A DNA stretch of 64,000 bases from a bacterium (GTDB lineage Bacteria; Patescibacteriota; Microgenomatia; JAMCZE01). Positions 5,252 to 62,593 of the stretch are shown one piece after another. A model generated the notes under the pieces. The model had not been told where the DNA came from and did not search any database. It was given only the letters and a program-made list of their open reading frames with translations. Location of the stretch: assembly GCA_021836035.1 (NCBI GenBank), contig JAKBJL010000002.1:71484-135483 (forward strand), in the 5' to 3' direction. Both the position numbers and the translations under genes were made by a program. How positions within the stretch are numbered: position 1 is the first letter of the stretch; every line of letters starts with the position of its first letter.

Positions 5252-5286
5252 TTTACATAAGTATCTTCCCCTGATATTATCATTTC
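5252..5286 (+). promoter_or_regulatory. Sigma70-like promoter for the epimerase gene, probably giving a leaderless transcript
   Basis: -35 TTTACA (5252-5257), an exact 17-nt spacer, an extended -10 TGaTATTAT (TG at 5272-5273, -10 at 5275-5280), and the ATG at 5287. There is no Shine-Dalgarno between the -10 and the ATG, so the predicted transcription start falls at or next to the start codon. Confidence 0.4.
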
Positions 5287-8190: not shown

Positions 8191-8219
8191 TCGTGTTCAA
8201 GAGATAAGATGAACCCTCA

Positions 8220-8864: not shown

Positions 8865-8866
8865 GT

Positions 8867-12910: not shown

Positions 12911-12913
12911 TAA

Positions 12914-15398: not shown

Positions 15399-15425
15399 AA
15401 GCAGCTCAAAGCCAATAGCAAATAG

Positions 15426-17679: not shown

Positions 17680-17680
17680 A

Positions 17681-22919: not shown

Positions 22920-24370
22920 TCTAAAAATTGCCTGGCATCAAACATCAGAGAATCTCCCAAGAGATGGCGATTATGGTCCGTATCCTCAAAGTATACTCCC
23001 CGGAAATTTTCCCCGAAATAGAGACGGAACATATCCGTCCCGCCGGTAGCGTAGGCCAATTCCCGGGAGGGATGTAATTTATTCCCGGTTAAAGCACAAA
23101 CCGGATTATTGTTATTGCGAAAATAAATATTAGGGTAAAAAACCGGCGACGAACCGCTCAAAACTAAAAGCCGCATGACCCTTTCGGCAGCAACCGCTCT
23201 TTTCACCGACCAATGGTTGGAGATATTGAAATTCAATGCGGAAAAACTTAATAACAGATAGATAAAACAGGCAAGAACGATCATTTGCCGCGAAAGATTC
23301 CGGACCACTACTGCCAGTATCAGGGCTAACCCGCAAAGCGGCAGAGTCAGGCTATAGGCAAACTTGTGAAAGGGATAAAAAGCCACGGGCAAAAGGAAAA
23401 CGACAAAAAAAACCACCCCGAAAATAAGTATGTTCACGGGTTCTTCTCTTATCCGGCGCCATCTGTCGCGGCTGTTTTCCCACATCCGGGCTAAACCTAA
23501 GGAAAGCAACCCGAAGAACCCGGCAAACATTCCTAAAACCCTGTTACCCCATAAACCAAATTCGGTAAAAATCGCCGGGTTAATTAGCAGGGGAAGCTTA
23601 AACAATTTAATGTTGACATAGGCTTCCGGCAACCCCAACCCCCAAAGTCCGTACCAGAAATAATTATTGAGAATTTGCTTCGGATTAAAGTTAAAAGCAT
23701 AAGCTTCCCCGGAAGCAAAACCGAAAAATTTAAGGCGCGCAATTACATATAAAGCAACTACCATCAAAGACGCGCCCAAAAGCGGCCACTTGATCTTTTT
23801 CTGCCATAACCAGTCTGCAAAAAATAAAACCGGCGGGATGACGACCGCCGTTTCTTTAGAGGCTAACGCCAACAGAAAACCAGCTAAAAATAACCAACTG
23901 CCGCGCAAATAAAAAATGACCGTTAAAAGTCCGAAAGTCGCTAAAGCCAATTCCTGTATCTGGGAGAGGAAAAAGAGGCGGTAAAAATGGGATCCCGAAA
24001 AGGCGTAAAAAAAGGATGTTAAAACAGCCAAGCCGTCGTTCCGGCAGAGAAGCTTTACTAACCAGAAAACCAGCAGGATATTAACTAGGAAGAAACCAAA
24101 AGCGATTAGATGATACCCCAGGGGTTGGAGACCGAAGAGATTTTGACCGAGGCGCCAAAACAGCTGCGTCGTCAACGGACGATAAAATTTAAAATCGAGG
24201 ACGGGGGCCTTAAAAATATTAAAAGCGTCACCCAGGCTTTGGCTGTTAGCCAGAAGCATATTAAAAAAATCGTCCTGGAAGAAAAAATTTCCTAATGCCT
24301 GCCGGTAGAATAAGGCGGCAACCGGAAGGAGCAAAACCAGCAGATATTGCGGTTTGGCAAAGGTTTTCAT
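22916..24370 (-). CDS. Polytopic membrane protein, putative GT-C glycosyltransferase
   Basis: The protein is 484 aa and multi-helical. The first extracytoplasmic loop, ...GNFFFQDDFFNMLLANSQSLGDAFN..., carries a DD motif. Confidence 0.4.
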   Translation of the reverse strand: MKTFAKPQYLLVLLLPVAALFYRQALGNFFFQDDFFNMLLANSQSLGDAFNIFKAPVLDFKFYRPLTTQLFWRLGQNLFGLQPLGYHLIAFGFFLVNILLVFWLVKLLCRNDGLAVLTSFFYAFSGSHFYRLFFLSQIQELALATFGLLTVIFYLRGSWLFLAGFLLALASKETAVVIPPVLFFADWLWQKKIKWPLLGASLMVVALYVIARLKFFGFASGEAYAFNFNPKQILNNYFWYGLWGLGLPEAYVNIKLFKLPLLINPAIFTEFGLWGNRVLGMFAGFFGLLSLGLARMWENSRDRWRRIREEPVNILIFGVVFFVVFLLPVAFYPFHKFAYSLTLPLCGLALILAVVVRNLSRQMIVLACFIYLLLSFSALNFNISNHWSVKRAVAAERVMRLLVLSGSSPVFYPNIYFRNNNNPVCALTGNKLHPSRELAYATGGTDMFRLYFGENFRGVYFEDTDHNRHLLGDSLMFDARQFLE

Positions 24371-25140
24371 GAACCTGAGGAAAATATCGGACTATGATAT
24401 ATCCCCCATCGATGGAGAAGATATAAAAACACTTCCCAGCAGCTTTCAAGACCGAACTTCAAACCGCGCCAGCCGCTGATGGAAGATTGCTGGTCGTGAT
24501 AGCGGGTCGGGATAGGGATTTCCCCGATCGCTAGCCCCGCGGCGACCGCCGAAATCGTAAATTGCTGATCGAAAACAAAATCGTTGGAAAAACGCTGAAA
24601 AGGAACTTTCTCCAGGCACTTGCGGCTGTAGGCGCGTAACCCGCTCATATATTCAGACAAATTTTCGCCGAGGATAATATTGGCAAAAAGCGTAAACAGG
24701 CGGTTAAAAAAATATTTTTGCTTCGGCATCCCGCCGGCCAGCGCCATCCCGCGGTTTTTTATCCGGCTGCCGAACATCATATCGTAATCCCCGTTTAAAA
24801 TCGGGTCGACCAAACCCTTGATTTTCGATCCGTCATACTGGTAGTCGGGATGAAGCATCACTACGACGTCCGGATTCCTTTTTAACGCTTCCCAATAACA
24901 GGTTTTTTGATTACCGCCGTACCCCAGGTTATGAGGATGCCTAAAAACCGTTAAGCCCAGTTTTTGCGCCGTCTCCGCCGTTTTATCCTTGCTTCCGTCA
25001 TCAACCAGAATTATTTCGCTTACTAACCCCGCCGGAATTTCCCGAAAAGTGCTCTCGACCGTCCGCTCGGCATAGTAAGCCGGCATAACGACGACAATTT
25101 TCGGTTTCGTTTTTGCCATCTTTTTACTCCATTCTAGCAA
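24367..25140 (-). CDS. GT2 polyprenyl-phosphate sugar synthase (Dpm1/Ppm1-like)
   Basis: KIVVVMPAYYAERTV...IILVDDGSKDKTAETA...VVVMLHPDYQYDGSKI... matches the Dpm1 pattern. It sits immediately downstream of a PMT_2-type GT-C gene. Confidence 0.8.
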   Translation of the reverse strand: MLEWSKKMAKTKPKIVVVMPAYYAERTVESTFREIPAGLVSEIILVDDGSKDKTAETAQKLGLTVFRHPHNLGYGGNQKTCYWEALKRNPDVVVMLHPDYQYDGSKIKGLVDPILNGDYDMMFGSRIKNRGMALAGGMPKQKYFFNRLFTLFANIILGENLSEYMSGLRAYSRKCLEKVPFQRFSNDFVFDQQFTISAVAAGLAIGEIPIPTRYHDQQSSISGWRGLKFGLESCWEVFLYLLHRWGIYHSPIFSSGS

Positions 25141-26725
25141 AATTAAAGGCCGGTGATCCGTCGGGGAAATTGATAGTTTTAAACACTGTTAGTCCCGAAG
25201 CGTTGTCTTTGGGCGAGAGGATATACAGACCGCCGGGATCGCGCCTATCCAGAGAAAACTGATATTTATCAAAGCCGGCGTAAAAATAACCGTTATTCTT
25301 AACTACCGGAGAAACCCGGCCGTAAAAAAGAAAATAAATATAGGGCTGATCGTAAGCGGAAGTGACATAAATCCGGTCGTAATTATTTTCCGTTGCCAGA
25401 ACGTCTTTTACCACTTCCCGGTATCCATACAGCCAGGCGGGAGCGTATTCTACCGGTAAATGCACAAAATACATATGCAAATAATAAAAGCTATTCAACA
25501 ACAGCATTAAACAAACAGACGATATTGCAAAACCCCGAGATAATCTTGGCCAAACCGTAGGCGACAGCACAGAGCTTTTAACCTTTAGCCTGAAGTTTTT
25601 GGCCAAATTAATAGTTTTAATCAACCCGTATCCCGTAATAATCTGGTAAGTCGGCAGATATAATAAAGCCCGGATGGCGTGGGGAGTTTCCGTAGTCACA
25701 GCGGCAGCAGACGGGGCGAGCAAAAACCACCAAGCCAGCGGGAAAAGCCACTTGGGCCTGCGAGCTAATAAAAAATAGCTCCCGGCCAAAAGGAAAGGCA
25801 GCTCCCAAAGATAGAGCATCCCCATATTCGGAGCATGGTGCCGAAAGTTAGCGTCCCCGTTTAGAAACAAAAAGTTAAAATCGAGGTGGTCTAGATAATT
25901 TTTGGCATAGCGCGCCGCTAAAGCCGGCGGATCGGAGGGCCCCGGTCCGGAAAAGATACTGACTTCTCCGAAACGGGCGCCCACGCTTCCGACATGCAGG
26001 GTGTTGCGCACCAGGGGGTAAAGTAAAATGAAAGCCATAATTACCCCCGCAAGGCTTATTTTCCAATGGGTGAAAAATATTTTCCGGTAATAAAAGGCTA
26101 TTCCCGCTAAAAAAAGCGGTACTACCAGGCGGCTGCTGTGATAACAATATAGCGACAGGATAAAAAAGAAAATTGAGAAAAAAAGGGAAAAATAAGAGGG
26201 CAGTCTAACAAACCGGAAAAGGAAAACACTGCCCGCGATAAAAAGAAAAAGTGCCAGATTAGCCTCAAAGGCTCCGCGGCTAAACTGGATCGACCAGGGA
26301 GAAATCGCTAAGAGGAAAGCCGCTAAAAACGGTAGGGCTTGCCATTTATCTCCCCCGGTGTCGTTATCCAAGGCTAGCCACTGCCGCACCAGAAAAAAAG
26401 TCGCTATCACCGCCAGCACCCCCGCCAAGGCCGAGGGAAACCGCACGGAAAATTCGTTTAATCCCTCCAGAGCGATTCCCGGAATGGCGGCATAAATATA
26501 AACCGGCGGCTTGTAATCGTTAAAAGAGCGGAAGGAAACGGGCAGTTTATTCCCATATTCGTCGCTGCCGGTAGCAAGCAAAGAATAGGCATTCCACCCC
26601 AGGGAAGCCTCATCCCAATCCAATCCCGGGGGATTAATCCCCAGCCGGTAAAACCGCAGCAAAAAAGCCAACAGGACAATTAGCGCCAGTATAAATAGAT
26701 ATTTCCCTTTCCCGATTGGTTTCAT
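25124..26725 (-). CDS. GT-C glycosyltransferase, PMT_2/ArnT family (GT39/GT83-like), paralog A1
   Basis: ...LRFYRLGINPPGLDWDEASLGWNAYSLLATGSDEYGNKLPVSF... carries the DE-A acidic motif after TM1. The start is placed at MKPIGKGKYLF (26725) by alignment with paralog N-termini; the ORF Met at 26803 adds a non-conserved 26-aa extension. Confidence 0.7.
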   Translation of the reverse strand: MKPIGKGKYLFILALIVLLAFLLRFYRLGINPPGLDWDEASLGWNAYSLLATGSDEYGNKLPVSFRSFNDYKPPVYIYAAIPGIALEGLNEFSVRFPSALAGVLAVIATFFLVRQWLALDNDTGGDKWQALPFLAAFLLAISPWSIQFSRGAFEANLALFLFIAGSVFLFRFVRLPSYFSLFFSIFFFILSLYCYHSSRLVVPLFLAGIAFYYRKIFFTHWKISLAGVIMAFILLYPLVRNTLHVGSVGARFGEVSIFSGPGPSDPPALAARYAKNYLDHLDFNFLFLNGDANFRHHAPNMGMLYLWELPFLLAGSYFLLARRPKWLFPLAWWFLLAPSAAAVTTETPHAIRALLYLPTYQIITGYGLIKTINLAKNFRLKVKSSVLSPTVWPRLSRGFAISSVCLMLLLNSFYYLHMYFVHLPVEYAPAWLYGYREVVKDVLATENNYDRIYVTSAYDQPYIYFLFYGRVSPVVKNNGYFYAGFDKYQFSLDRRDPGGLYILSPKDNASGLTVFKTINFPDGSPAFNFARME

Positions 26726-26726
26726 C

Positions 26727-27965
26727 TCAATATAAATTAAAATGCGGGTAAATACCCCAAAGACTTGAAAGATATAAAGCGTTAAATAAAATTCCCAGGA
26801 CAATTAGGGATTTGGCAAAAAGCGATAGCCGCGGCCGGAGATTCGGAAGCAGGGCTAAAAAGAGAAAGGGTAAAAAGTCCAGTGCATAGCGATAGCCGAA
26901 CTGGGTGAAACCGACTCCGTAATATAAGAGCGAAGGAACCGCCAGTACTAAAACACTTAGCCAGGCGGAGCGGGAATAAGCTTCCTTTTTAGCACGGAAA
27001 AGCAGGAGAAACAACGGGGAAGTAAACCAGAGGGCCATCCCCCAGCCATCAGCTTTCAGATAGGGAAACTTTAAGACAAAACCACCTCCCGGCGCTAAAA
27101 CCGGATCCGGAGCTTTCAGCAATAAGGAATAAAGATTGGCCGGCAGATGACTAAGGCTCATAAAACCATACCCGGCATTGACATTCATCGGATAATTTTT
27201 TAGCGTCAGATTATAACGGTATCCGGTTTCCCAGGGCGTCCGGAAACGTTTGTAATTATAAGCCCCCAAAATTAAAAGCGAAATAACGACCGGCAAAAAA
27301 AGAAGCAGGACCGCCCGGTAATTAAATTTCGTCCGGAAGATTTCCGCCAGGAAATAAACCAGCGAAAAATATAAAGTCATGCGGGTCAACCCGGCCAGCG
27401 CTACCAAAATCCCGATCAGCCACCAACGCCGACTGCCGAAATACTCCCCAAGCGCGAACAGAACGAAGGTAAAACCCACCGCCTGAACCAGATAAGCGGA
27501 AATATTCACCAGGCCGGCCCCGAAAAGCACGGTGGAAAAAACCAAAAAGAGCGCCAGCCAAAAGCTGTCGCTATCAGAAAACTTTAATTTTAGCGCGAGA
27601 AAATAGGCGGTACAAAAAGAAAACAAAAGCGCTCCCCAGCCTAAAACCTCCTGGAGCTGATTATTCTTTGTCAAGAAAGCCAGCGGCATAAGAAGTATGG
27701 AAGGCCAGGGACCGAAATAAATAAACCGCCTGTCAAAAAACGCGACAATATCCCCGTTCGGAAGCCCCAAAGGAGAGAGCTCCACGCTTCCCTTGAGAAA
27801 CTGCCGGGCCAGAAGCATCAGGTGGATATCCCCGCCGGCTTGCTTTGCCGCTATCGGCCCGAAAATCAAAATCGCGGAAAAAAGAGCAAAATAAAGCAAC
27901 AAAAAGGGCAGCCACCAAACTTTTAAAAAAGCTCTCATGCCCCGCACTCCCCCTTTATTGATCAT
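26727..27965 (-). CDS. Polytopic membrane protein, putative GT-C-like glycosyltransferase
   Basis: The protein is 412 aa with about 10 helices. It has a periplasmic-loop D (NGDIVAFFD) and an ArnT-like C-terminal helix bundle. Confidence 0.35.
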   Translation of the reverse strand: MINKGGVRGMRAFLKVWWLPFLLLYFALFSAILIFGPIAAKQAGGDIHLMLLARQFLKGSVELSPLGLPNGDIVAFFDRRFIYFGPWPSILLMPLAFLTKNNQLQEVLGWGALLFSFCTAYFLALKLKFSDSDSFWLALFLVFSTVLFGAGLVNISAYLVQAVGFTFVLFALGEYFGSRRWWLIGILVALAGLTRMTLYFSLVYFLAEIFRTKFNYRAVLLLFLPVVISLLILGAYNYKRFRTPWETGYRYNLTLKNYPMNVNAGYGFMSLSHLPANLYSLLLKAPDPVLAPGGGFVLKFPYLKADGWGMALWFTSPLFLLLFRAKKEAYSRSAWLSVLVLAVPSLLYYGVGFTQFGYRYALDFLPFLFLALLPNLRPRLSLFAKSLIVLGILFNALYLSSLWGIYPHFNLY

Positions 27966-29481
27966 TGCCCGGTAGAACCTGATATAACTGCAGATAGTCC
28001 CCGCTATTTCCCTGCTGATATTTGGCCAGAAGCTTCACTTTCCAGCTGATGGGAGGCTGGGGCCGTTGATAAACAACAAAAAAAGTGGGCTGGCTCTTTG
28101 CTGCCAGGGCAATCTCCGCGGGCACTTTTTCCGGCAGCGGCCAATAATCTTTAATCCGGACATTCGGATAATCTTTCTGATAAAGCTGCAGGGAATAAGG
28201 CATCAGGCCGAAAGTGCCCTCCGTTCCGATTAAGACTTCGGGGTATTGCTGTGACTGTGCAGTTAAAAAATCCCGGATCTCTTTTACTCCGTAACCCGCC
28301 GGCCAGCCGTTGATATATTGGTGGGAATCGCCGTCAGGGATAGGAGCCCCGGGCGGGTCAGTGACCAGCTTAAAGTCGGTAAATAGTGGGATAAATAAAA
28401 CCCCGGCGGTAATAAGAAGCAGCAGCTTGGGCGGGGACAGAAACTTAATCTTGGGTAAATGACTAAACTTTACTATTCCCGCTGCCGCCAGAACCAAAAG
28501 CGGCGGAGTAAAAGTCAATAAAAAACGCGGAAAAATGCTTTTGTTAAAACTGGCCATCGCGATAAAAAAACAAAGGTAAACGGCAAGTAAGACAAAAGCG
28601 GTAATATTTTTACGCACTATTGCCAAAGCGGCGCCGAATAAAGTGAAAAAAGCTACGGGCACCGTCAGATAACCTATCTGCCAACGTAAGAGCGTAAGCG
28701 CGTTATCGCGAAATAAACTGAAGGGGTGCCTTAAAAATTCCCCGAAGGAAACGACAAATTCCGCGTTCTTTTGGGCAACCATATGGAATAAAGGAAATAA
28801 ACGTAAAATCCCGTAAATCAACTCCGCTTCGAATAATGCCACCCCCAGGAGACCGGCCCAGATCAATAACCGGGTAGGCCGCCGCTCCTTTTGCCAATCA
28901 AAAAATACCAGTAGCAGCGGTTGGAAAAGAAGAAAAAAAAGTGCCGGAGTTTTAGTCAACAAGCCAAAACCGACGGCCCAGCCCAAGAGCAGGGCTGCAT
29001 CCGGACGCAGGCTGCGGGCCAACCAGATGCCCAAAACCAGACTCCAGGTGGCCCACATGGCAAGCATCGTATCCGCCAAACCGAAACGATCGTAAAAAAA
29101 AGTGAAAGGCACCAGAAGGTAAAGCACCGCGGATAAATAAGCAATCTTCCGATCGCCAAAAACCTGGCGGGCCAATAAATAGATACCGACCATGCCCCCG
29201 AACCCGGCAGCAACCGAAACCAAACGCCCGGAAATAACCGGATCGAACACGGGCAGCAGCCTCAATACGCCGGATACCGCCCACATAAAAAGCGGCGGTT
29301 TTCCGTCCACCAGCGGTAAATAGCGTAAAGAGGCATCGTAAGCCATAATCTGGCTCCAGCGCAGATAAATTGCCTCGTCGGTAAATATAGGTATTATTCC
29401 GAGGTTAACCAGCCTGGTAAGAACATAAACGACGCATAGCGCCGCCCAGGCTAAAATTACCGTTCTATATCTTTTCCACAT
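27955..29481 (-). CDS. GT-C glycosyltransferase, ArnT-like (GT83-like)
   Basis: ...LTRLVNLGIIPIFTDEAIYLRWSQIM... resembles the ArnT DEaRYa first-loop motif. The protein is 508 aa and multi-helical with a C-terminal soluble domain. Confidence 0.55.
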   Translation of the reverse strand: MWKRYRTVILAWAALCVVYVLTRLVNLGIIPIFTDEAIYLRWSQIMAYDASLRYLPLVDGKPPLFMWAVSGVLRLLPVFDPVISGRLVSVAAGFGGMVGIYLLARQVFGDRKIAYLSAVLYLLVPFTFFYDRFGLADTMLAMWATWSLVLGIWLARSLRPDAALLLGWAVGFGLLTKTPALFFLLFQPLLLVFFDWQKERRPTRLLIWAGLLGVALFEAELIYGILRLFPLFHMVAQKNAEFVVSFGEFLRHPFSLFRDNALTLLRWQIGYLTVPVAFFTLFGAALAIVRKNITAFVLLAVYLCFFIAMASFNKSIFPRFLLTFTPPLLVLAAAGIVKFSHLPKIKFLSPPKLLLLITAGVLFIPLFTDFKLVTDPPGAPIPDGDSHQYINGWPAGYGVKEIRDFLTAQSQQYPEVLIGTEGTFGLMPYSLQLYQKDYPNVRIKDYWPLPEKVPAEIALAAKSQPTFFVVYQRPQPPISWKVKLLAKYQQGNSGDYLQLYQVLPGNDQ

Positions 29482-30832
29482 TGCTTTGATAAAAATAAAA
29501 CAGCGCCGGCGGAACAGCCAGCAGTAAATATATTATACCCGTCCCGGCGAAACTTTGCGGATTAAGCCGCAAGACGCCCCAATATACGGCATAGGCCAAT
29601 AGTGAGGTGAAAGAAAAGAGCAAAAAAGTTTTCGCCAACCTGCCGAAAGGCAGAAGCGGTATAAAAACCAAACCCCAGAGAACATACCAGTTCCAGTAAA
29701 AAGTGGTCACAAACAGCAAATAAACCAGAATAGCCCGCAAATAGAGGGATAACGGTTCTTCTTTGCCCAGAAAATTTCGCCGCAACAACCAAAGGAAATA
29801 AATTAGAAAACCGGCGGTAATGATTACCCTGCTGCCCGGAATTATGGGGGTTAGTAACATCGGCAGGGATTGCCAGTAAATACCCGAGCCGTAAACCAAG
29901 CGGTCGAGAAAACCCGTTAAACCGTTCCCCAATAGCGCCAGACCGGTAAGATTAGCCGCTAAAAAAGCGCCGGTAAAAGTAATCAACGGTTTCCGCTTTA
30001 GCTCTTTAACCAGCCCGGCAAAGAGAAAGACCGCAAGGACAACGGCGATAAATTTCGCCTGGACCGCCGCTCCCAAGAGCAGCCCGGCCCAAAGGTACTT
30101 TTTCCCCAGATAAAAATATAAACCCGCCAGGAGGCAGAAAAGCATAATGATATCGTTATGCGCCGAGCCGGCAAGTTCCCAAACGAAGAGCGGATTCCAA
30201 CCGACCAATACCAGTCCCTGTTCTACCCGGTCAGGAAAAAAGCGGGATAACGTTTGGAAAAGCAAAATAAGAAACCCGGCAGCAAAAATTATGGCTACTA
30301 ATTTATGGGTAATGACACTGAGTAATAAACTATTGCCGCCGGCCAAACCAGCCAGGGTGTAAAAAAACTGGTTTACCGGCCCGTAGGGATTTACCGTAGT
30401 CTGCCAACTGGCCAGTTGATAAAAAGGGTCCTTGGGATAAGCCGCCGGAGCGGTTACCCAAATGTTCTGGTGATAAACGTTAACTATCCGGTCTTCTAAA
30501 ATGTAATCAAAAATATCCGTGGAAAGCACGGGATAAGAGAAAAAAACAATACCCAGGAAAAGAAAGCTGAAAAACAGAATCTTTTTCGCAGATATCCGGC
30601 AGCGCAGCGCCCGGTAATAAAAATAAAATGCGCCGCTAACCAGTGCGGCAAATAAAGCGGTAGGGACCGTATTTAGGTGAAGGGAAAGCAATAAAGTCCG
30701 GCCGGAAACAAGAAGCGCACCCAGATGCGGATATAATTTTTCGTACACGGCGAGCGCTCTTTCGTCCCGGAAGAGAATTATCCAGGAAAGCAGGGTATAA
30801 AGCGTATAGAATATGGCTAAATAAATACCCAT
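29465..30832 (-). CDS. Polytopic membrane protein, GT87/DUF2029-like putative glycosyltransferase
   Basis: ...LSTDIFDYILEDRIVNVYHQN...VNPYGPVNQFFY... resembles the DUF2029/PimE-type D..Y...NPY motif. Confidence 0.4.
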   Translation of the reverse strand: MGIYLAIFYTLYTLLSWIILFRDERALAVYEKLYPHLGALLVSGRTLLLSLHLNTVPTALFAALVSGAFYFYYRALRCRISAKKILFFSFLFLGIVFFSYPVLSTDIFDYILEDRIVNVYHQNIWVTAPAAYPKDPFYQLASWQTTVNPYGPVNQFFYTLAGLAGGNSLLLSVITHKLVAIIFAAGFLILLFQTLSRFFPDRVEQGLVLVGWNPLFVWELAGSAHNDIIMLFCLLAGLYFYLGKKYLWAGLLLGAAVQAKFIAVVLAVFLFAGLVKELKRKPLITFTGAFLAANLTGLALLGNGLTGFLDRLVYGSGIYWQSLPMLLTPIIPGSRVIITAGFLIYFLWLLRRNFLGKEEPLSLYLRAILVYLLFVTTFYWNWYVLWGLVFIPLLPFGRLAKTFLLFSFTSLLAYAVYWGVLRLNPQSFAGTGIIYLLLAVPPALFYFYQSNVEKI

Positions 30833-32470
30833 TTAAGTTTTGGCAGAAATTTCCCAGATACTCCGGCCGTCCGGGGCGGAAATCGTTTTTAATAATTTTG
30901 CGTCTTTGGGTGTAGCCCCCGGCTCACGCAAATAAAGCCAGCGCCCGTTATCCCCTGACGTTGTTCCGAATAACAGCTTAGCGAAACCGTGAACATACCA
31001 AAAACCGTACCAATCCCGATCCGCGGATCTGGTAGCCCAATATTTCTCCGGAGGATATTGCTCGTAAAAAAGAAAAAAGATATAAGGACGCCCATAGGCC
31101 TCGCTGACGCTGATATGATCATACTCATCAGCGTGCGCGGCAACATACGCTACCGCTTCTTTATAACCGTATTGCCAATCCAGGGCATATTTTTCCGGAT
31201 AAGTGAAATAATAATCCCGAAGGTAAACAAGCAGGGACAAAGCATAGATTACGGCGACGGTCAAACCCAGGGCTCTTTGGAAGCGGGAACTTCCCGCTAT
31301 TTCCCAAATTGCCGCCAGCCCCCAGGCGGCAATTACCGACCATATGGGAAGTACCGGCAGAATCCTTAGAGCGTGCGGTGTTTCCCGCGCAACAGCCGCC
31401 GGTATGGGCGCAATTAACAGCCAGGCAAAAATTACTCCCGTCGCTTTACTCCGCCTCCGCAGGAGATAATATATTCCCGGAATGATCAATAACAAATCGG
31501 CCCAGTACAATTCGCCTACGGATTGGACGGATAACCGCGGATTAACATCACCGTGATAGAAAAGAAAATCACCGCGGAAATGATCAGTATAATGCTGTAA
31601 AAATTCCCAGGTATAAACTACTCTGCGGTTGTGCAGGATCTTAGACCACCAGGTATCGCCGTCTTGTGTGATCCTGGCGTTAGAAAGTTCGATCGGTTTT
31701 AGGTCGTTAAGCCAGGTAACCTCATAAAAACGCAGACGCCCCTCCCGCGAAAATATATGGGGCAACATAGGTAGAAGCAATAAGGCGGTGACTGTGCCAA
31801 AAACAATAAATTGCCGCCGGTTTGACCAAATATTCCGATAAAAAATAAGTAAAAGGGCGGCTATCATTAAGGGTACAAAAACACGGTGGGAATTGAAAGT
31901 ATACATGGAAAGAGCAAAAAAGATACCCGATAAAAGACAACTTAGCCATCCCCGGGTACGAATTGTGCGCAAAAATAAATAAATACCCAGGCCGCTGAAA
32001 AGAGTTGCCAAGTTTGCTTCAAACGCCCCGCGGCTAAACTGCAACGCCCAGGGGGATATCGCTAAAAACAGAGCTGCTAGGGCGGGTAAATATTTATTCC
32101 GCCCCCGGGCCATCGATTTACCACCGTCCAAATAGAGCAATTCCCGGGTTAAATAATAAGAAACCATGACTAAAAGTGCGCCGGCCAACGCCGAAGGCAA
32201 TCTGACGCTGAATTCAGATAGGCCGAGAATTTTTACAAAGAGAGCGTCGAGATAAATATAGCCGGGAGGTTTATAATCACCGAAGGCGATAAAGCGCGCT
32301 ATGGGCAGAAATTCTCCGTGTTCGTCGCGCAGGGTTTGAGAAATCGCGTAAGCGTTATAACCCAGCGAAGCCTCATCCCAATTAAGGCTGGGCGGAATAC
32401 TTCCGAGATCATATAGCCTTAAGACAAGCGCGAGGAAGATAATCAGTGCCGGAAATAATATTTTTTTCAT
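30833..32470 (-). CDS. GT-C glycosyltransferase, PMT_2/ArnT family, paralog A2
   Basis: MKKILFPALIIFLALVLRLYDLGSIPPSLNWDEASLGYNAYAISQTLRDEHGEFLPIARF... carries the family motif. Confidence 0.7.
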   Translation of the reverse strand: MKKILFPALIIFLALVLRLYDLGSIPPSLNWDEASLGYNAYAISQTLRDEHGEFLPIARFIAFGDYKPPGYIYLDALFVKILGLSEFSVRLPSALAGALLVMVSYYLTRELLYLDGGKSMARGRNKYLPALAALFLAISPWALQFSRGAFEANLATLFSGLGIYLFLRTIRTRGWLSCLLSGIFFALSMYTFNSHRVFVPLMIAALLLIFYRNIWSNRRQFIVFGTVTALLLLPMLPHIFSREGRLRFYEVTWLNDLKPIELSNARITQDGDTWWSKILHNRRVVYTWEFLQHYTDHFRGDFLFYHGDVNPRLSVQSVGELYWADLLLIIPGIYYLLRRRSKATGVIFAWLLIAPIPAAVARETPHALRILPVLPIWSVIAAWGLAAIWEIAGSSRFQRALGLTVAVIYALSLLVYLRDYYFTYPEKYALDWQYGYKEAVAYVAAHADEYDHISVSEAYGRPYIFFLFYEQYPPEKYWATRSADRDWYGFWYVHGFAKLLFGTTSGDNGRWLYLREPGATPKDAKLLKTISAPDGRSIWEISAKT

Positions 32471-32913
32471 TTACGCGGCAAAAATATTTTAAATATACCG
32501 TAAACCAACTGCCAAACAGCATAGATTATTACCAGGCCTTCGACAACATATAAAATAACGGCTTCCGCAGAGATATTATTAGGTATCTTAAATAAAGGAA
32601 GCAACGGAACTATCAGTAACACGGCCAAGAGCAACCAGCGTCTATTAAAGACCAGGTAAAATACACCCGCCAGAAAGAAGACCATGCCGATAAAAGAAAA
32701 AGCGCCGGTAATAAAATCCGGCGAGAGATAGGAGAGATAACAGCGCAAAATATTGTCCGGATAGAACAGGAATTTGTTGTGAAAAAGCCGCGTCAGAAAA
32801 GTATGGGCCCGGATACCGTCCGCGGTTTGCGCTTCCCATATTTGGTGGGGAACATCCAGCTTGATCCACTCCCAGTTGCAGGTAAAATCAGTACTCATAT
32901 ACCCGGAAAGCAA
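32467..32913 (-). CDS. Hypothetical small membrane protein (2-3 C-terminal TM helices)
   Basis: The 148-aa product has a soluble N-terminal half and a hydrophobic C-terminal half (IGMVFFLAGVFYLVF..LLLAVLLIVPLLPLF..AVILYVVEGLVIIYAVW). It couples to the downstream PMT_2 paralog by a 4-nt overlap. I recognise no family. Confidence 0.35.
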   Translation of the reverse strand: MLSGYMSTDFTCNWEWIKLDVPHQIWEAQTADGIRAHTFLTRLFHNKFLFYPDNILRCYLSYLSPDFITGAFSFIGMVFFLAGVFYLVFNRRWLLLAVLLIVPLLPLFKIPNNISAEAVILYVVEGLVIIYAVWQLVYGIFKIFLPRK

Positions 32914-34390
32914 TATCGCCGTTTACCATTCTGATCGGTGCCAGTTCTTTCTTCGTGGCTATCCCCATCCAGGAGGGCGTGATAGCCAACGATTTTTCTA
33001 AAGGCCTCGGCCTTGTCGGTTCGGTCTTAAAATCCACGATATAATATTTGTCCAGAAAGCGGGTCAAATTATGCCCGCTTCTCTGGAGAGCGAGCGGGTC
33101 ATAAGGCAAATATAAGGCTAAATACACCGGATTGAGATCTTGGGTAATAAATATCTGGCCGTAGTTACCCTGTACGCGCTTCAGATAGCTGACTAGTTGT
33201 TTGCTGCCGTCCTGCCAGTCGGGAGCATAAGCTTTTGGGTAATGGATAAAATAAATATGCAGGTATACTAAAAAGGCAAAAACAAATAAAACCATAAATA
33301 CGGGCCTGCTTACTAACGGAAATTTGGACAATAAAAACACCATTCCTATTGCCGATAAGATCTGCCAGCCGATTACGGAATCCAGACCTCTTAGCGCGTG
33401 AGGAGATACCCTGGTTAAGGCGACGGGAAGGGCTGCGGAGAGGATTAATAAAATAAGAATTAATCCCCCCCTGCCGCGGCGGCGGAAAATCAGGTATGCT
33501 CCGGCCAGGACAGCGGGCAATTGCCAGATATATAATTCCCCAATCTTTTTTACCGAGTGTCTGCCCTCCTGGTCTCCTTTGAAAAAAAGATAATCGCTGC
33601 TGAAATTGGCGACATAATTATTGACCACGTTGGTCAACAGATCGCCCGGTTCCTGTTGCACGCTCTCCGCGCGGAAACGTGACCCCCCCTCGGGGGAAAA
33701 TACATAGGTCTGTAAATAGGGCCATAATAAAATGCCGGCAAGTAGAATTGCCACTAAAACCGTCTTCCAGGCGGCCAGCAGTTTTCGCGCGTACGCCATA
33801 CTCAAACCTAAAAACACTAAGGGAATAGTAACGGCCGGGCTCAGATAAGTATAAAAACAAAGCACCAGGGAAAAAGCGGAAGCGAAAAGATAATTAATAT
33901 TTTCTCTCACCGCCAGCAGAAAAAATAATATGCCCATACTTAAAAAGAACAACGCCAGGTTGGCTTCAAATCCCGCCCGGCTGAATTGTATATGCCAGGG
34001 AGAAACGGCCAGAAATAAAGCGGACAGCAGGGCCAATTTGGCACGGTAGGGAAACAACTGCCTGACCAAATAAAAAATTAGCGCAACCGTGGCCGTCCCC
34101 GCCAGTACGGAAGGGAAACGTACCGCAAAATCTTTCAGCCCGAAAACCTTCTCCGAGACAGCAACCGCGTAAACATATAGGGGTAATTTAAAATCTCCGA
34201 AGGACTTGATCGTCAACGGGTAAGCTATCCCCCATTCGTCTTTACCCGTCTGCAGAAGGGAATAGGCATTGTAAGCGATAGAGGCTTCATCCCAATAAAG
34301 CGACGGCGGATTAACCGTAAACTTATAAATACGCAAAATAAACGCCAGCAGTACGGTCAGCCCCAACAACAAGCCATAGGTTTTATTCAT
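32888..34390 (-). CDS. GT-C glycosyltransferase, PMT_2/ArnT family, paralog A3
   Basis: ...LRIYKFTVNPPSLYWDEASIAYNAYSLLQTGKDEWGIAYPLTIKSFGDFKLPLYVYA... carries the family motif. Confidence 0.7.
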   Translation of the reverse strand: MNKTYGLLLGLTVLLAFILRIYKFTVNPPSLYWDEASIAYNAYSLLQTGKDEWGIAYPLTIKSFGDFKLPLYVYAVAVSEKVFGLKDFAVRFPSVLAGTATVALIFYLVRQLFPYRAKLALLSALFLAVSPWHIQFSRAGFEANLALFFLSMGILFFLLAVRENINYLFASAFSLVLCFYTYLSPAVTIPLVFLGLSMAYARKLLAAWKTVLVAILLAGILLWPYLQTYVFSPEGGSRFRAESVQQEPGDLLTNVVNNYVANFSSDYLFFKGDQEGRHSVKKIGELYIWQLPAVLAGAYLIFRRRGRGGLILILLILSAALPVALTRVSPHALRGLDSVIGWQILSAIGMVFLLSKFPLVSRPVFMVLFVFAFLVYLHIYFIHYPKAYAPDWQDGSKQLVSYLKRVQGNYGQIFITQDLNPVYLALYLPYDPLALQRSGHNLTRFLDKYYIVDFKTEPTRPRPLEKSLAITPSWMGIATKKELAPIRMVNGDIAFRVYEY

Positions 34391-36045
34391 TTATTTCTCC
34401 CGACAATATAAACCGATTCCTGCCCATTCAAATAATAATACTTTTTCAGAACCGGGGCATCCGGCGGGAACTCGGAAGGTTTACCCACGGCCAATATTTC
34501 CGCATGGTCCTTGATTGTTCCCCAATCAATCGGTTGAAAATAATATTTTCCGAAATGATTGCCGGTTTCCCTGAATCCTCCGGAAACAGTCCCCCCGTCT
34601 TGAGAAAGATAGGTCCGCGGATCGTAGCGGAGGAAAAAGGTAAAAAAATTCTGGGGCTGGCGGAGATTAGTGGAAACTATGATCTTTTGATATTTTCTGC
34701 CAAGGCGATCGGTATCGGCTACGACCTCTTTATACCCGTAAAACCACAATTGCGAATAATCCGCCGGAGCATGAATCAACATCATGTGCAGATACAAAAT
34801 TATACCCCCCATAACCAGAAGGGGGAAAAGGTACCTTAAGCGCTGCAGCAAAAACCGCTCTCCGGCATATTCCCATAATCTGAAAAGGCCGAATGCCGAG
34901 AGCAATTGGTAAGCCGGTAAGACCGCCGTGGTGCGGATAGAACTGGGCGTGGCGGAAGTCACTGCCGCCGGAAGCGGTGCCAAAAGAATCCAACCGCTAA
35001 GCAGCCAGGCCAATTGTTTGTGATTGCGCCAAACATCGAAAAGTCCGATTAAAAGCAGGGGCATTTCCCAAAGATAGAGCAAGCCGATATTAGCAACATA
35101 ATTTACCGGCGGTCCGCTCTCTCCCAAAAAAAGAAAGTCCGGACGGAAATGGGACAAATAACTTACCGCCGCTTTTTGGGCATAGGCCAAAATCTGGGGA
35201 TGGAAAAGAACCAGGGCGTTATTATCGCCTTTTGCTTGGTCATAAAAGCGCCAGGAAAGATTAATTTCCCGGGGTTTTGGATCCTGAAGAATACTGGTTC
35301 CCTGTAAACGCATTTGGCCGGCGGTGGTTGTTGCTAAAAGCAGCGTAGGCAATAACAGCAAGCCGAACAGTAACAGGGGTAAAGATATTTTTTTACGCTG
35401 CGGCCACAGCGTGCGGAAAAAAACCCAAAAAAGCAGGAGAATAAACAAGGGAACAAAAACCCTGGCGGCCTGATATAAATATAGTTCCGTACCGAAAAAG
35501 AGAAAAGCCAGTAACCAGAGGTATAATCTCGCCATTCTAAGACCCCGCAGCCACAACCATAAGCCGGTGGCAGTCATGAAAACGACGCTGCCGGACTCGA
35601 AGGCTACCCGCGTAAACTGCAAATGCCAGGGGGCAATGGCTAACAAGAAGGCGGCCGTGAAGGGAACAACCCAAAACAATTTCGGGTCCGGATTGGGCCT
35701 GCCGAGATACAAGAGCTCCCGTGCAAGCAGGTAAGTGGCTGCAACAGCCAGGACTCCCAAAAGCGCGGAGGGAAAACGTACCGCATATTCAGTTAACCCG
35801 AAAACCGCGACAGCAGGCACTGTCAGATAAATATATAAAGGAGGCTTGTAATCATCATGGGAACGAAAAACCAGCGGCAGAAATTGACCGTACTCATCAC
35901 GACCGGTTTTTAAAATGCTGTAGGCATTCCAGCCGATTGCTGCTTCGTCGAGATTGATGCCCGGCGGAATTTTACCCAATTGATAAAAACGCAGGACAAA
36001 AGCCAACAAAAGGATGAATATGAACAATAATCCTTTTCGGTTCAT
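34387..36045 (-). CDS. GT-C glycosyltransferase, PMT_2/ArnT family, paralog A4
   Basis: ...LRFYQLGKIPPGINLDEAAIGWNAYSILKTGRDEYGQFLPLVFRSHDDYKPPLYIYL... carries the family motif. Confidence 0.7.
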   Translation of the reverse strand: MNRKGLLFIFILLLAFVLRFYQLGKIPPGINLDEAAIGWNAYSILKTGRDEYGQFLPLVFRSHDDYKPPLYIYLTVPAVAVFGLTEYAVRFPSALLGVLAVAATYLLARELLYLGRPNPDPKLFWVVPFTAAFLLAIAPWHLQFTRVAFESGSVVFMTATGLWLWLRGLRMARLYLWLLAFLFFGTELYLYQAARVFVPLFILLLFWVFFRTLWPQRKKISLPLLLFGLLLLPTLLLATTTAGQMRLQGTSILQDPKPREINLSWRFYDQAKGDNNALVLFHPQILAYAQKAAVSYLSHFRPDFLFLGESGPPVNYVANIGLLYLWEMPLLLIGLFDVWRNHKQLAWLLSGWILLAPLPAAVTSATPSSIRTTAVLPAYQLLSAFGLFRLWEYAGERFLLQRLRYLFPLLVMGGIILYLHMMLIHAPADYSQLWFYGYKEVVADTDRLGRKYQKIIVSTNLRQPQNFFTFFLRYDPRTYLSQDGGTVSGGFRETGNHFGKYYFQPIDWGTIKDHAEILAVGKPSEFPPDAPVLKKYYYLNGQESVYIVGRNK

Positions 36046-36746
36046 TAGCCGATAAATCGATATTTAACTAATGTCCAAACGGCGGCAAAACCATCATGCC
36101 AGCGGATTTTTTTGCCTTCGGAAAAACCCCGCTTGCGATAGCTAATCGGTAATTCCCGGATGGGAATTTTCTTTTTTAGCAGTTTTGCGGTTATCTCCGG
36201 CTCAAAATTAAACCGCCGGCTATTAATTTCGATCCCCCTTAAAGACGCCCGGGGAATTAATTTGTAACAAGTCTCCATATCCGAGATCCGGCAGCCGTAA
36301 AGGAAATTGGTTAGCCAGGTAAGCAGCATATTGCCGAATTTATGTCCTGGTACCGTATCCTCATACGGTCCGGTAAAACGGGAGCCGTAGATTGCCGTTC
36401 CGGGCAGGTTTTTTGCCAACGTCACCATTCTCCGGATATCCCGGGGGTCGTATTCCAGATCGGCATCCTGAATAATTACGTGAGTACCGTTAGCATGCCG
36501 TAAGCCGCTTTTAATCGCCGCTCCTTTGCCGTAATTTTGGGCATGATTAACCACAAACAATTTTTTCCGCCGCCGGTAAGCGGCCAAAATTTTATCGGAC
36601 CCGTCGCTGGAACAATCATTCACCGCAATTATTTCCCGGTCCCAACCGTCAAGGTCCAGTGAGAGTAACCGATCAATAACCGTACCGACAGTCCGCGCCT
36701 CATTAAAAACCGGAACAATTACCGAAAGCTTAGAAGAGCTCTTCAT
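36045..36746 (-). CDS. GT2 polyprenyl-phosphate sugar synthase (Dpm1/ArnC-like)
   Basis: KLSVIVPVFNEARTVGTVIDRL...IIAVNDCSSDGSDKIL...HVIIQDADLEYDPRDI... matches the Dpm1 pattern. It lies directly downstream of the three tandem PMT_2 paralogs. Confidence 0.8.
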   Translation of the reverse strand: MKSSSKLSVIVPVFNEARTVGTVIDRLLSLDLDGWDREIIAVNDCSSDGSDKILAAYRRRKKLFVVNHAQNYGKGAAIKSGLRHANGTHVIIQDADLEYDPRDIRRMVTLAKNLPGTAIYGSRFTGPYEDTVPGHKFGNMLLTWLTNFLYGCRISDMETCYKLIPRASLRGIEINSRRFNFEPEITAKLLKKKIPIRELPISYRKRGFSEGKKIRWHDGFAAVWTLVKYRFIG

Positions 36747-37695
36747 TTTTCAGCGGCCGGGCAAAGGCAAAATATTTCCCAACTTCCCGATCGGAAAGGA
36801 TAAATTTTTTTCCGGTCTGTAAACGGCGCCTAAACGCCTGGGGTATTTTAAATATCGCCAGGATTAAACCGTAAACCATCGCCCCGTCCCCTCTTAAAAT
36901 CGCCCTTAAAAGGTGGAAGGGCAGCCAGTAAAAATAGTTGAAAATATATCCCGGATCCGTAATATCTTTCCACACGATTATATTTTGATTACGGAATGCT
37001 ACCGCCCGGCGATAAAAGGGGGAAAAATGTCCCCGGATAGGACCCTCTTCGTGGAAATGGCCTACGACAATCCGCGGATCAAATATTATGCGGTAACCGC
37101 TTTTCCAGGCGCGATAACCTAAATCCAGGTCTTCACCGTAAAAAGGATCAAGTATTGTGTCCAAACCTCCCAAATCCTGCCATTTTCGGCGATGGAAAGC
37201 CCCGCTGCCGCCGTTGGCCCAAAGACTGACCCCGGGCTTAATTTCCCCTAAATTATGCATCAAAAACCCGCGGGCGAATCGGCCTACCGCCCTGCCCCGT
37301 TCCACGATCCTCCCTTTTTCGTAACTGCGATCTAAAAAACCTACGGCAAAAATACGGTCGTCGCCGAAGTCTGCCGGCAGATACTGAAGGAAATTATTTT
37401 CCGGACGAACATCGGTATTTAACAAAACGACAATCTCTCCCCGCGCTTTACTAACTCCCGCATTGACCGCGCTGGAAAAACCGCTATTTTTTTTCTGGAC
37501 AATTAATTTTAAATTCTCAAAGCGTCCGGCCAATTCCCGGACCACTTCCCGGCTATTATCCCGGGAGCCGTCATCGACAACAATCACTTCCGTCTCCGGC
37601 CCGGCGGCAGTTAACACCGCCGGTAAATTTTTCGCCAGCAAGGCGGCACCGTTCCAATTGGGAATCACGATACTAATCGCGTTATTTGCTTGCAC
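36730..37695 (-). CDS. Glycosyltransferase family 2 (WbbL/rhamnosyltransferase-like)
   Basis: ISIVIPNWNGAALLAKNL...VIVVDDGSRDNS...LNTDV...YGEDLDLGYRAWKSGYRI matches the GT2 Glyco_tranf_2_3 pattern. Confidence 0.7.
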   Translation of the reverse strand: MQANNAISIVIPNWNGAALLAKNLPAVLTAAGPETEVIVVDDGSRDNSREVVRELAGRFENLKLIVQKKNSGFSSAVNAGVSKARGEIVVLLNTDVRPENNFLQYLPADFGDDRIFAVGFLDRSYEKGRIVERGRAVGRFARGFLMHNLGEIKPGVSLWANGGSGAFHRRKWQDLGGLDTILDPFYGEDLDLGYRAWKSGYRIIFDPRIVVGHFHEEGPIRGHFSPFYRRAVAFRNQNIIVWKDITDPGYIFNYFYWLPFHLLRAILRGDGAMVYGLILAIFKIPQAFRRRLQTGKKFILSDREVGKYFAFARPLKNEELF

Positions 37696-37709
37696 AAGAT
37701 TTCCGCTGC

Positions 37710-62581: not shown

Positions 62582-62593
62582 TAGGCTATTCTA

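Follow-up and report, generated by a model that had tools for sequence, protein, structure and literature searches.

A 62-kb co-directional array of GT-C-like glycosyltransferase genes in a Microgenomates genome may encode extracytoplasmic glycan assembly

A MAG of an ultrasmall Microgenomates (CPR) bacterium contains a co-directional glycosylation array of ~62 kb and ~47 genes. We put at about 60% the probability that this array encodes a polyprenyl-phosphate-sugar-dependent machinery for extracytoplasmic glycan assembly, similar to that for mycobacterial LAM and arabinogalactan. Its donors would be lipid-phosphate sugars and its acceptor a glycopolymer, not a protein. Glycopolymer assembly is favoured over protein mannosylation by the genetic context, which comprises a Wzx flippase, GT4/GT2 enzymes, MptA/B-like enzymes and methyltransferases. 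Most of the array lies within the window, i.e. the whole 64,000-nucleotide stretch of DNA that was analysed:

9928..63895, (-) strand: in-window part of the array, a run of 40 genes that includes about 23 GT-C-like ones

Past the end of the window the array continues for about 8 kb, up to its start next to a TrmD gene of divergent orientation; its other end is at about position 9928. As a whole it holds ~27 GT-C-like genes from at least eight families: five famA genes (see below), four YfhO, three PTPS_related, six PMT_2 genes termed famD (three of them in the window), two MptA/B-like genes and singletons. In addition, it encodes seven GT2 proteins resembling polyprenyl-phosphate-sugar synthases, the Wzx flippase, cytoplasmic transferases of the GT4/GT2 type (five GT4s among them) and two methyltransferases. 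A priming phosphoglycosyltransferase, a Wzy-type polymerase, a ligase or an LCP transferase was not recognised in the array.

In the window, array genes overlap or are spaced by at most 27 bp, with a single exception (a gap of 346 bp), and this packing suggests an operon. When the region from 22 to 39 kb was scanned, promoter-like sites occurred at shuffle expectation, and terminator-like matches were inflated by the T-rich coding sequence of membrane proteins. A GC shift was considered as a sign that the GT-C array is of foreign origin, but could be dismissed as such since the flank past the array has an equal GC content (0.477). The GC outlier in the window is its first 10 kb, which is low in GC. 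There, an ABC-transporter glycan locus adjoins the array, with Wzm/Wzt (including Wzt_C) alongside; this low-GC locus was probably acquired.

The original prediction was centred on the interval 24367-36746, described as a cluster bracketed by two GT2 genes. All ten ORFs of this interval are present on the (-) strand with unchanged coordinates, in agreement with the public annotation of the MAG, which gives 25124..26725 a length of 533 aa, the GT2 at 24367 one of 250 aa and the small ORF one of 143 aa. The bracketing itself is an arbitrary slice: these GT2s are two of the seven in the array, and the four paralogs between them are four of ~27 GT-Cs.

With a more distant gene, these paralogs had been counted as five related enzymes. 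BLAST indeed unites exactly five proteins in a single family, which we propose to be a distinct GT-C family (famA):

25124..26725, (-) strand: famA paralog a, 533 aa; PMT_2 21.2 bits, below the gathering score
30833..32470, (-) strand: famA paralog b, 545 aa; GT-C, the member modelled structurally
32888..34390, (-) strand: famA paralog c, 500 aa; PMT_2 6.7e-12
34387..36045, (-) strand: famA paralog d, 552 aa; PMT_2 24.7 bits, below the gathering score
56830..58638, (-) strand: famA paralog e (the fifth), 602 aa; PMT_2 27.9 bits

The five are 30–37% identical over their full length (E-values from 1e-41 to 1e-95), with 31–36% for paralog d and 30–33% for paralog e against the other members. Paralog a is the conserved final member of famA arrays and is followed by a GT2 gene. 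Paralogs b, c and e exceed the Pfam gathering score for PMT_2, a and d stay below it. The PMT model (PF02366) is matched above its gathering score solely by b (32 bits) and is not reached by the other four. No PMT_4TMC or MIR domain was matched by Pfam in any paralog.

The N-terminal motif said to be shared by all five is real, with WDEA and DE-G as its core, although single letters deviate: the sequence reads NLDEAA in 34387 and PV..RDEAS in 56830. In an alignment of 65 sequences, R18, P26, D32, E33, D49, E50, P56, D65, K67, R90 and others are invariant; the two acidic pairs, D32-E33 and D49-E50, are also present in all five paralogs. Acidic EL1 motifs following TM1 occur in nearly all GT-C-like genes of the array. 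As had been proposed, famA proteins are GT-C enzymes, having a polytopic fold, a conserved N-terminal module and a conserved acidic EL1 motif. Like ArnT, they combine the GT-C fold with a C-terminal domain in the periplasm and have a Lys (KPP) conserved at TM2.

At the sequence level, famA matched no curated NCBIfam family, ArnT included, and no solved structure; when PDB sequences were searched with the famA profile, the only match, a marginal one, was to ArnT (E = 0.013 over 70 residues). The 'KPP' phosphate-binding region of ArnT aligns with the invariant K67. Structural comparison placed STT3B (24.5) and ArnT (23.5) ahead of Pmt4 (22.7), hence PMT is not the closest structural relative. 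Within famA, the loop at 241–322 is 29% identical between paralogs and 59% among orthologues; the values for EL1 are 53% and 67%.

Four further membrane proteins are encoded between the famA genes:

26727..27965, (-) strand: polytopic membrane protein, 412 aa, about 8 TM helices
27955..29481, (-) strand: PMT_2/PMT GT-C singleton, 508 aa; PMT_2 3.2e-13; 'FTDEAIY' in EL1
29465..30832, (-) strand: MptA/MptB-like GT-C, 455 aa, about 12 TM helices; PF26314 MptA_B_family
32467..32913, (-) strand: small membrane protein, 143–148 aa; central extracytoplasmic loop of famA and the following TM helices

Three of them had been predicted to be GT-C singletons. This holds for 27955, which aligns with famA (hhalign, 99%), and for 29465, which matches MptA in NCBIfam with 1.5e-12 and MptB with 34.9 bits (cut-off 40). 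Support is weak for 26727, which has no match in Pfam or NCBIfam; hhalign values of 25–38% to GT-C families, against 0.8% to a Wzx control, point to a possible GT-C as far as can be judged from sequence. The fourth, taken to be an orphan of 148 aa, is instead a famA-derived mini-protein. It matches positions 263–342 of the famA profile, lacks the catalytic N-terminus and is conserved in nine other loci, where it likewise forms an ORF of its own flanked by copies of famA, with the motifs 'WE..T.DG', 'TR.FHNK' and 'RCY'. We also considered this ORF as the missing GtrA-type flippase, which is ruled out by its alignment to the famA loop and TM helices; it has no match in Pfam or NCBIfam.

Candidate enzymes for donor synthesis are the GT2 proteins, four of which are encoded in the window:

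17681..18370, (-) strand: TM-less GT2, the third of the class of 24367 and 36045, 229 aa; 'DADGQH' motif
24367..25140, (-) strand: TM-less GT2, 250–257 aa; Pfam GT2 1.8e-19; divergent 'HPDYQYD' motif
36045..36746, (-) strand: TM-less GT2, polyprenyl-phosphate-sugar-synthase-like, 233 aa; 'QDADLEYDP' motif
43459..44388, (-) strand: canonical GtrB/ArnC/PgfS-type polyprenyl-phosphate glycosyltransferase, 309 aa, 2 C-terminal TM helices

The proteins at both ends of the interval are, as anticipated, Glycos_transf_2 proteins without a TM helix, and no membrane anchor is visible in the TM-less GT2s. Nor are the two of the processive type: QxxRW is absent, and with their GT-A fold and DxD motif they are closest to DPMS/ArnC/GtrB, for 24367 on the basis of sequence only (best PDB match PfDPMS, 3.6e-6). 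The DxD motif is DAD in 36045 and 17681 and takes the variant form 'PDYQYD' in 24367. All NCBIfam matches of these synthases are far below the equivalog cut-offs: AglJ (1e-17), Dol-P-hexose transferase (4e-15) and PpgS (8e-15) for 24367, AglJ for 36045 (89 bits, cut-off 325) and, over the full length, PpgS (polyprenyl-P-GalNAc synthase) for 17681 (2.2e-46; 158 bits, cut-off 370). The latter is 29–30% identical to 24367 and 36045. Orthologues of 24367 were found in the collected loci (n = 34, median identity 56%). Outside CPR, homologues of 36045 adjoin a PMT/PMT_2 gene in Margulisiibacteriota, and in an Actinomycetota MAG one lies between UDP-Glc dehydrogenase and an EamA/SMR-type small transporter.

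The protein encoded at 43459, outside the interval 24367-36746, matches GtrB sll0501 (3e-76) and ArnC (6e-50) from PDB over their full length, and PgfS from NCBIfam (2.4e-76). Immediately upstream, outside the window, the array encodes three further donor-synthase GT2s, one of them fused to GtrA_DPMS_TM, the sole domain of this kind; a stand-alone GtrA or an SMR/MATE flippase was not found in the window. The original prediction had overlooked the GT2 at 17681, the synthase at 43459 and three paralog sets, namely the four YfhO genes, the three PTPS_related genes and the three famD genes of the window.

The YfhO set, whose proteins are mutually 31–50% identical, and the flippase are located as follows:

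37710..39953, (-) strand: YfhO-family GT-C, first of four; Pfam YfhO
45278..46729, (-) strand: Wzx-type flippase; Polysacc_synt_3 6.6e-42, about 12 TM helices
49981-52353, 52308-54686 and 54602-56833: remaining YfhO genes; Pfam YfhO

Synteny blocks of the array were found again in 79 loci, which belong to Gottesman-, Chisholm-, Levy- and Curtissbacteria, among other groups, and together contain 286 famA genes. The recurring blocks include famA...famA-GT2-PTPS_related-GT2-PMT_2-GT2 and MptAB-PMT_2; the latter pair, represented here by 29465 and 27955, is conserved in many loci. In three loci (L003, L021 and L055) famA orthologues occur in the order d-c-b-a. Orthologues of a, b and d in other genomes are 40–58% identical and keep their order. 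The copy number of famA varies from two to seven per 20-kb locus across genomes, with many lineage-specific copies that are only 25–35% identical.

A route of assembly following the logic of mycobacterial LM/LAM/arabinogalactan can be proposed. At the cytoplasmic face, the seven GT2s would charge polyprenyl phosphate with different sugars; these are the PpgS/AglJ/DPMS-like 17681, 24367 and 36045, the GtrB/ArnC-type 43459 and the three upstream of the window. A lipid-linked primer would be built by GT4/GT2 enzymes and exported by Wzx, and the adjacent Wzm/Wzt might export a second glycan. At the outer face, a surface glycopolymer (a lipoglycan or a polysaccharide of the wall) would be extended by the ~27 GT-Cs of at least eight families, every one of them responsible for a single sugar and a single linkage; this polymer may be modified by the methyltransferases. 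In famA, D32-E33 and D49-E50 together with K67 and R90 are candidates for donor binding and catalysis of transfer, while the long paralog-specific loop (~241–322) and the C-terminal domain may set acceptor or linkage specificity. The earlier suggestion that several acceptor or linkage specificities are fed by lipid-sugar donors is reasonable.

Mycobacterial and corynebacterial LM-LAM and arabinogalactan synthesis (Ppm1, PpgS/Rv3779, MptA/MptB/MptC, PimE, EmbA-C, AftA-D) likewise uses many outer-face GT-Cs and polyprenyl-phosphate sugars made by small GT2s. Further parallels are the MptA/B-like genes, the PpgS-like TM-less GT2 and possibly methyl modification, with the likeness to the named mycobacterial enzymes below curated cut-offs throughout. 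Unlike the mycobacterial genes, which to our knowledge are dispersed around a far larger genome, those described here form one ~62-kb co-directional array in a CPR host with a probable ~1-Mb genome. The GT-C families also differ (famA, famD, YfhO and PTPS_related), and a PRPP/DPA pathway was not seen. ArnT (GT83) resembles famA in its KPP segment and itself matches the Pfam PMT_2 model, but the two are only 12% identical and their DE motifs differ. The acceptor of ArnT is lipid A, which would not be expected in CPR.

GT39 mannosyltransferases (yeast Pmt1/2/4, actinobacterial Pmt), which act with Dpm1/Ppm1, have a DE motif in the first extracytoplasmic loop and would be the model for protein O-glycosylation by Pmt-like famA enzymes. 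Mannose or another hexose from the polyprenyl-P donors of the adjacent GT2s would be transferred to Ser/Thr of surface or secreted proteins (pilins, S-layer, adhesins), with one acceptor class per paralog. The invariant DE motif in EL1, the PMT match of 30833, the DPMS-like adjacent GT2 36045 and the name 'glycosyltransferase family 39 protein' given by NCBI to many famA orthologues are in line with this, as is the fact that the protein-acting STT3, PglB and AglB are equally good structural neighbours. Nevertheless, we regard it as unlikely. STT3B and ArnT score above Pmt4, PMT_4TMC and MIR are lacking, and four of the five paralogs fall short of the PMT model. Neither the amplification of famA nor its polysaccharide-type context is known for Pmt: one Pmt suffices in actinobacteria, whereas here ~27 GT-Cs accompany Wzx, GT4s, MptA/B-like polymerase-type enzymes and methyltransferases, as is typical of a polysaccharide locus. 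Moreover, the array lacks a gene for any candidate acceptor protein. Protein O-mannosylation by a Ppm1/Pmt-like pairing, which had been predicted for the interval, is less likely in this context.

On sequence grounds alone, the array could also be a collection of independent decoration modules, each with a GtrB-type synthase, a flippase and a GT-C, which add side-branch sugars to polymers made beforehand (teichoic-acid-like ones or the glycan exported by Wzm/Wzt) and were amplified for surface variation, host attachment or phage evasion. Such three-component systems are known as GtrA/GtrB/Gtr*, CsbB/GtcA/YfhO, ArnC/ArnE-F/ArnT, PgfS/PgfM and GT136 (PMC11127046; reviewed in PMC8035078). They combine a GT2 polyprenyl-P-sugar synthase with a GT-C, and the array has a GtrB/PgfS-type synthase, four YfhO genes and a GtrA-type domain in the fusion upstream of the window. 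Divergent lineage-specific famA copies in varying number and the probably acquired ABC-transporter locus next to the array would suit amplified modules as well. However, ~27 GT-Cs and seven synthases are far from the one-to-one ratio of these systems, most synthases here have no TM helices and the window has no stand-alone flippase of the GtrA/SMR type. The core gene order (d-c-b-a and the two recurring blocks named above) is kept across several candidate phyla, which argues for an old, fixed pathway over rapidly shuffled modules. Characterised relatives of the MptA/B-like enzymes are backbone polymerases in LM/LAM biosynthesis, which does not suit side-branch decoration either, and we consider this explanation doubtful. 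That many of the paralogs have no function of their own, being redundant or decaying copies that arose by neutral amplification or as an assembly artefact, is highly improbable and largely refuted. The truncated famA-like mini-ORF and the members below Pfam thresholds might be seen as signs of decay. Yet all five famA proteins are full length with intact catalytic residues, a, b and d have ordered orthologues elsewhere, the mini-ORF itself is kept with conserved motifs, and the contig was recovered in seven assemblies or records.

CPR/Patescibacteria account for a large share of bacterial diversity, yet next to nothing is known of the chemistry of their envelope. In the literature searched, GT-C/PMT_2/YfhO arrays were not described for CPR. 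The only related remark was '29 genes of glycosyl transferases' for one Microgenomates genome (PMC7143001), and glycans are absent altogether from a recent perspective on CPR/Patescibacteria biology. That so large an array is conserved in a minimal genome implies a costly product under strong selection.

The array provides a defined gene set for metatranscriptomics and supplies glycoengineering with new linkage-specific enzymes. For the new GT-C family famA, a high-confidence model with candidate catalytic residues is available, and its paralogs form a series with one loop that follows specificity, useful for studying acceptor choice in GT-Cs. The product is probably the surface layer for host attachment, phage recognition and survival. 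More tentatively, a ~1-Mb Microgenomates genome that devotes ~6% of its DNA to one conserved array might build an extramembrane, lipoarabinomannan-like heteropolysaccharide coat that evolved independently of the mycobacterial one. The array would then be the densest GT-C assembly line we know of. This coat would be a lineage-defining component of the envelope and perhaps the interface with the host.

The flagged interval (24367–36746) proved to be a slice of a ~62-kb array of ~47 genes, ~27 of them GT-C-like and 7 encoding candidate lipid-sugar synthases. The bracketing of a PMT_2 cluster by two Dpm1-like genes, as noted in the original prediction, is thus an accident of how the interval was cut. 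The predicted ORFs are all present on the minus strand with their coordinates unchanged, and agree with the public gene calls of GCA_027371575.1 (DAHXMT010000003.1, a 236-kb MAG contig). Genes are named here by start coordinate.

ORFs of the flagged interval (Pfam)
24367–25140 and 36045–36746, minus strand: Glycos_transf_2
27955, 30833 and 32888, minus strand: PMT_2, with or without PMT
25124 and 34387, minus strand: PMT_2 under the gathering score
26727, 29465 and a 148-residue ORF, minus strand: no Pfam assignment

Between 9928 and the end of the window lie 40 consecutive minus-strand genes that overlap or are spaced by at most 27 bp, with one exception. This 346-bp gap (16572–16917) is the sole sizeable one within the window's 54-kb part of the array and a possible site of an internal promoter or regulatory element.

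In-window array content (Pfam, BLAST and hhalign; all minus strand)
25124, 30833, 32888, 34387 and 56830: famA (five genes)
37710, 49981, 52308 and 54602: YfhO (four genes)
21237, 46704 and 48440: PTPS_related (three genes)
58638, 61061 and 62594: famD, a further PMT_2 family (three genes)
9928, 12914, 18358 and 27955: PMT_2 singletons
29465: MptA/B-like
22916, 26727 and 41811: polytopic, GT-C-like at differing confidence (hhalign)
17681, 24367 and 36045: GT2 without TM helices, one family
20497, 41008 and 44385: second GT2 trio
36730: further GT2
43459: canonical GtrB/ArnC-type enzyme
45278: Wzx-type flippase
interleaved: five GT4 genes
interleaved: two SAM methyltransferases

The GT-C-like total in the window is ~23 genes with ~38 kb of coding sequence, and in nearly all of them an acidic motif directly follows TM1. 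By hhalign, 41811 and 22916 matched famD at 87% and 72%; 26727 reached just 25–38% against the GT-C families. Upstream, the array extends past the window end by seven co-directional genes (L083:1781–9956, ~63.9–72.1 kb in window-equivalent coordinates): three GT2s resembling lipid-sugar synthases, one of them a GtrA_DPMS_TM fusion, three famD genes and the array's second MptA/B-like gene. It is bounded by a divergently oriented gene for the tRNA methyltransferase TrmD, beside that of a 344-residue RmlC-domain protein.

At the other end, the minus-strand genes 6188–9931 lead straight into the array. The region 1–9900 has a GC content of 0.37–0.39, compared with 0.45–0.50 elsewhere in the window and 0.477 past the array. 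It is an ABC-transporter-dependent glycan locus with Wzm (2795–3613), Wzt carrying a Wzt_C carbohydrate-binding domain (1533–2792), GT4s, a GT2, FkbM-type and SAM methyltransferases and an epimerase, and was probably acquired laterally. Within the array, the adjacent YfhO paralogs 49981–52353 and 52308–54686 (minus strand) are 50% identical, far closer than other paralog pairs, which suggests a comparatively recent tandem duplication.

All-against-all BLAST of the 50 window proteins united exactly the five genes claimed as paralogs into one family, famA, whose members are mutually 30–37% identical over their full length. The N-terminal motif reported for them is genuine. An alignment of 65 sequences (the five paralogs and 60 homologues) revealed R18, P26, D32, E33, D49, E50, P56, D65, K67, R90, S93, G97, W141 and E151 as invariant. 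As D32, E33, D49 and E50 are among these, the conservation of DE on which the original prediction had staked its case holds throughout the alignment.

In public annotations famA is labelled ‘GT family 39’, ‘phospholipid carrier-dependent glycosyltransferase’ or ‘Ara4N transferase-like’. Its profile gave no convincing match to PDB sequences, the sole one being ArnT (E 0.013) over the ‘KPP’ segment, and no curated NCBIfam family beyond a weak match to Agl23; homologues number more than 3000 at E ≤ 1e-10. Membership in GT39 or GT83 is not demonstrable. Judged from its structural neighbours, famA is very likely a lipid-phosphate-sugar-dependent GT-C.

Structural neighbours of famA (score)
STT3B: 24.5
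ArnT (417 residues aligned): 23.5
Pmt4: 22.7
Pmt2: 21.4
ALG12: 21.0
AglB: 20.8
PglB: 19.8

Regional identity of 30833 (between window paralogs; to 30833 orthologues)
TM1 and EL1 (1–68): 53%; 67%
long extracytoplasmic loop (241–322): 29%; 59%
C-terminal domain (428–545): 28%; 45%

The loop 241–322 was ranked as least conserved across paralogs, yet second-best among orthologues. Such low paralog and high orthologue identity is what a specificity determinant would be expected to show. The proposal that specificity varies in the extracytoplasmic parts is thus partly supported, although the C-terminal domain shows the pattern less markedly than the loop.

The 148-residue membrane protein (32467–32913, minus strand), described as an orphan, is a stand-alone famA homologue. 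It aligns with famA profile positions 263–342, i.e. the paralog-specific central extracytoplasmic loop and the TM helices after it, and lacks the catalytic N-terminus; with this alignment, its identification as a GtrA-type flippase was rejected. In nine other Microgenomates loci, too, it is encoded on its own between famA copies, with the conserved motifs WE..T.DG, TR.FHNK and RCY. It is probably a functional famA-derived subunit rather than debris, and may have an accessory or specificity role.

The GT2s 17681, 24367 and 36045 contain neither TM helices nor QxxRW. A DAD motif is found in 36045 and 17681, and a variant of it in 24367. The best PDB sequence matches were ArnC, GtrB and PfDPMS for 36045 (~1e-11 to 1e-12) and PfDPMS for 24367 (3.6e-6). 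Their best NCBIfam matches (AglJ, PpgS, Dol-P-hexose transferase, ArnC) were all far under the equivalog cut-offs, including the full-length match of 17681 to PpgS (2e-46). These GT2s are likely lipid-sugar synthases. ‘Dpm1-like’ is acceptable as a class label, but does not imply mannose. The sole canonical GtrB/ArnC/PgfS-type polyprenyl-phosphate glycosyltransferase in the window (43459–44388, minus strand; E 3e-76 to GtrB sll0501; two C-terminal TM helices) lies outside the flagged interval and adjoins the Wzx flippase region.

Homologues of 36045 with ~50% identity occur outside the Patescibacteria (CPR) at L085:5001–5690 and L086:3411–5678. On a Margulisiibacteriota contig the homologue directly follows a PMT/PMT_2 gene inside a heptosyltransferase (GT9) cluster; in an Actinomycetota MAG it is flanked by UDP-glucose dehydrogenase and an EamA/SMR-type small transporter. 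These neighbours fit a lipid-sugar donor role, and the ~228-residue GT2 family of 36045 may represent a widespread unnamed class of lipid-sugar synthases.

The members of the second GT2 trio (20497–21240, 41008–41811 and 44385–45281, minus strand) are 30–42% identical and share the motif ‘LDADE’; their sole matches, all weak, are arsenosugar-type and SunS-type GT2 models. Directly upstream lie PTPS_related 21237, GT-C-like 41811 and Wzx 45278, respectively. The PTPS_related–GT2 pairing is repeated in many other loci.

We favour, with a probability of about 0.6, an extracytoplasmic glycan assembly in which the GT-Cs build a surface glycopolymer from lipid-linked sugars. Several GT2 synthases would attach different sugars to polyprenyl phosphate. 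The resulting lipids, together with a primer made by GT4/GT2 enzymes, would then be brought to the outer face; Wzx is present, and the GtrA-domain fusion is the only candidate flippase for the monophosphate donors. Many GT-Cs would extend and branch the glycopolymer, which would then be methylated. Within the array, neither a priming phosphoglycosyltransferase nor a polymerase, ligase or LCP enzyme could be recognised.

Pmt-like protein O-glycosylation, the original proposal, appears unlikely: the nearest structural neighbour of famA is not a PMT, and famA has no PMT_4TMC domain. That the genes represent several independent modules for decoration or variation is likewise doubtful.

A search for famA patterns across GTDB, at one genome per species, yielded more than 532 confirmed relatives, and profiles built from the window's own families were searched over the 79 best loci (286 famA genes). 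Three arrangements recur: two to seven tandem famA genes followed by GT2 (24367-type), PTPS_related, GT2, PMT_2 (18358-type) and GT2 (17681-type); MptA/B-like followed by PMT_2 (27955-type); and YfhO, GT2 (36730-type) and GT2 followed by famA. About half of the loci carry titles of Microgenomates/Patescibacteria MAGs (Gottesman-, Chisholm-, Levy-, Collier-, Curtiss-, Roizman- and Woesebacteria). Most others are co-assembly TPA MAGs labelled ‘uncultured Gammaproteobacteria’ or ‘Pseudomonadales’, which we take as placeholders because gene content and order match the Microgenomates loci; a few are otherwise labelled (one Bacteroidota, one Saccharibacteria, some plain ‘bacterium’).

Redundant, decaying duplicates are a highly improbable explanation. 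Paralogs 30833 and 25124 form the conserved final two of the famA run in many genomes, and the order 34387–32888–30833–25124 is retained in three loci (L003, L021, L055). The famA duplications are therefore old, with lineage-specific copies added later.

Assembly of mycobacterial LM/LAM/arabinogalactan employs Ppm1, PpgS/Rv3779, MptA/B/C, Emb and Aft, and follows the same logic as the glycan assembly proposed here. This reading also fits the known three-component periplasmic glycosylation systems (PMC11127046), for which there is reportedly a review (PMC8035078).

The components of the array are of known kinds (GT-C, GT2 lipid-sugar synthases, Wzx). No prior description of such an array was found in open-access papers and bioRxiv; what comes closest is a single line noting 29 glycosyltransferase genes in a complete Microgenomates genome (PMC7143001), and a 2024 perspective on Patescibacteria biology does not mention glycans. 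Given the sizes of relatives (one complete 1.09-Mb chromosome and contigs of 0.95–1.02 Mb), such an array would occupy ~6% of a ~1-Mb genome. Unusual features are the abundance and dense packing of GT-C genes within a single conserved array, its occurrence in minimal CPR genomes, and famA itself, a large family without a curated or structural home.
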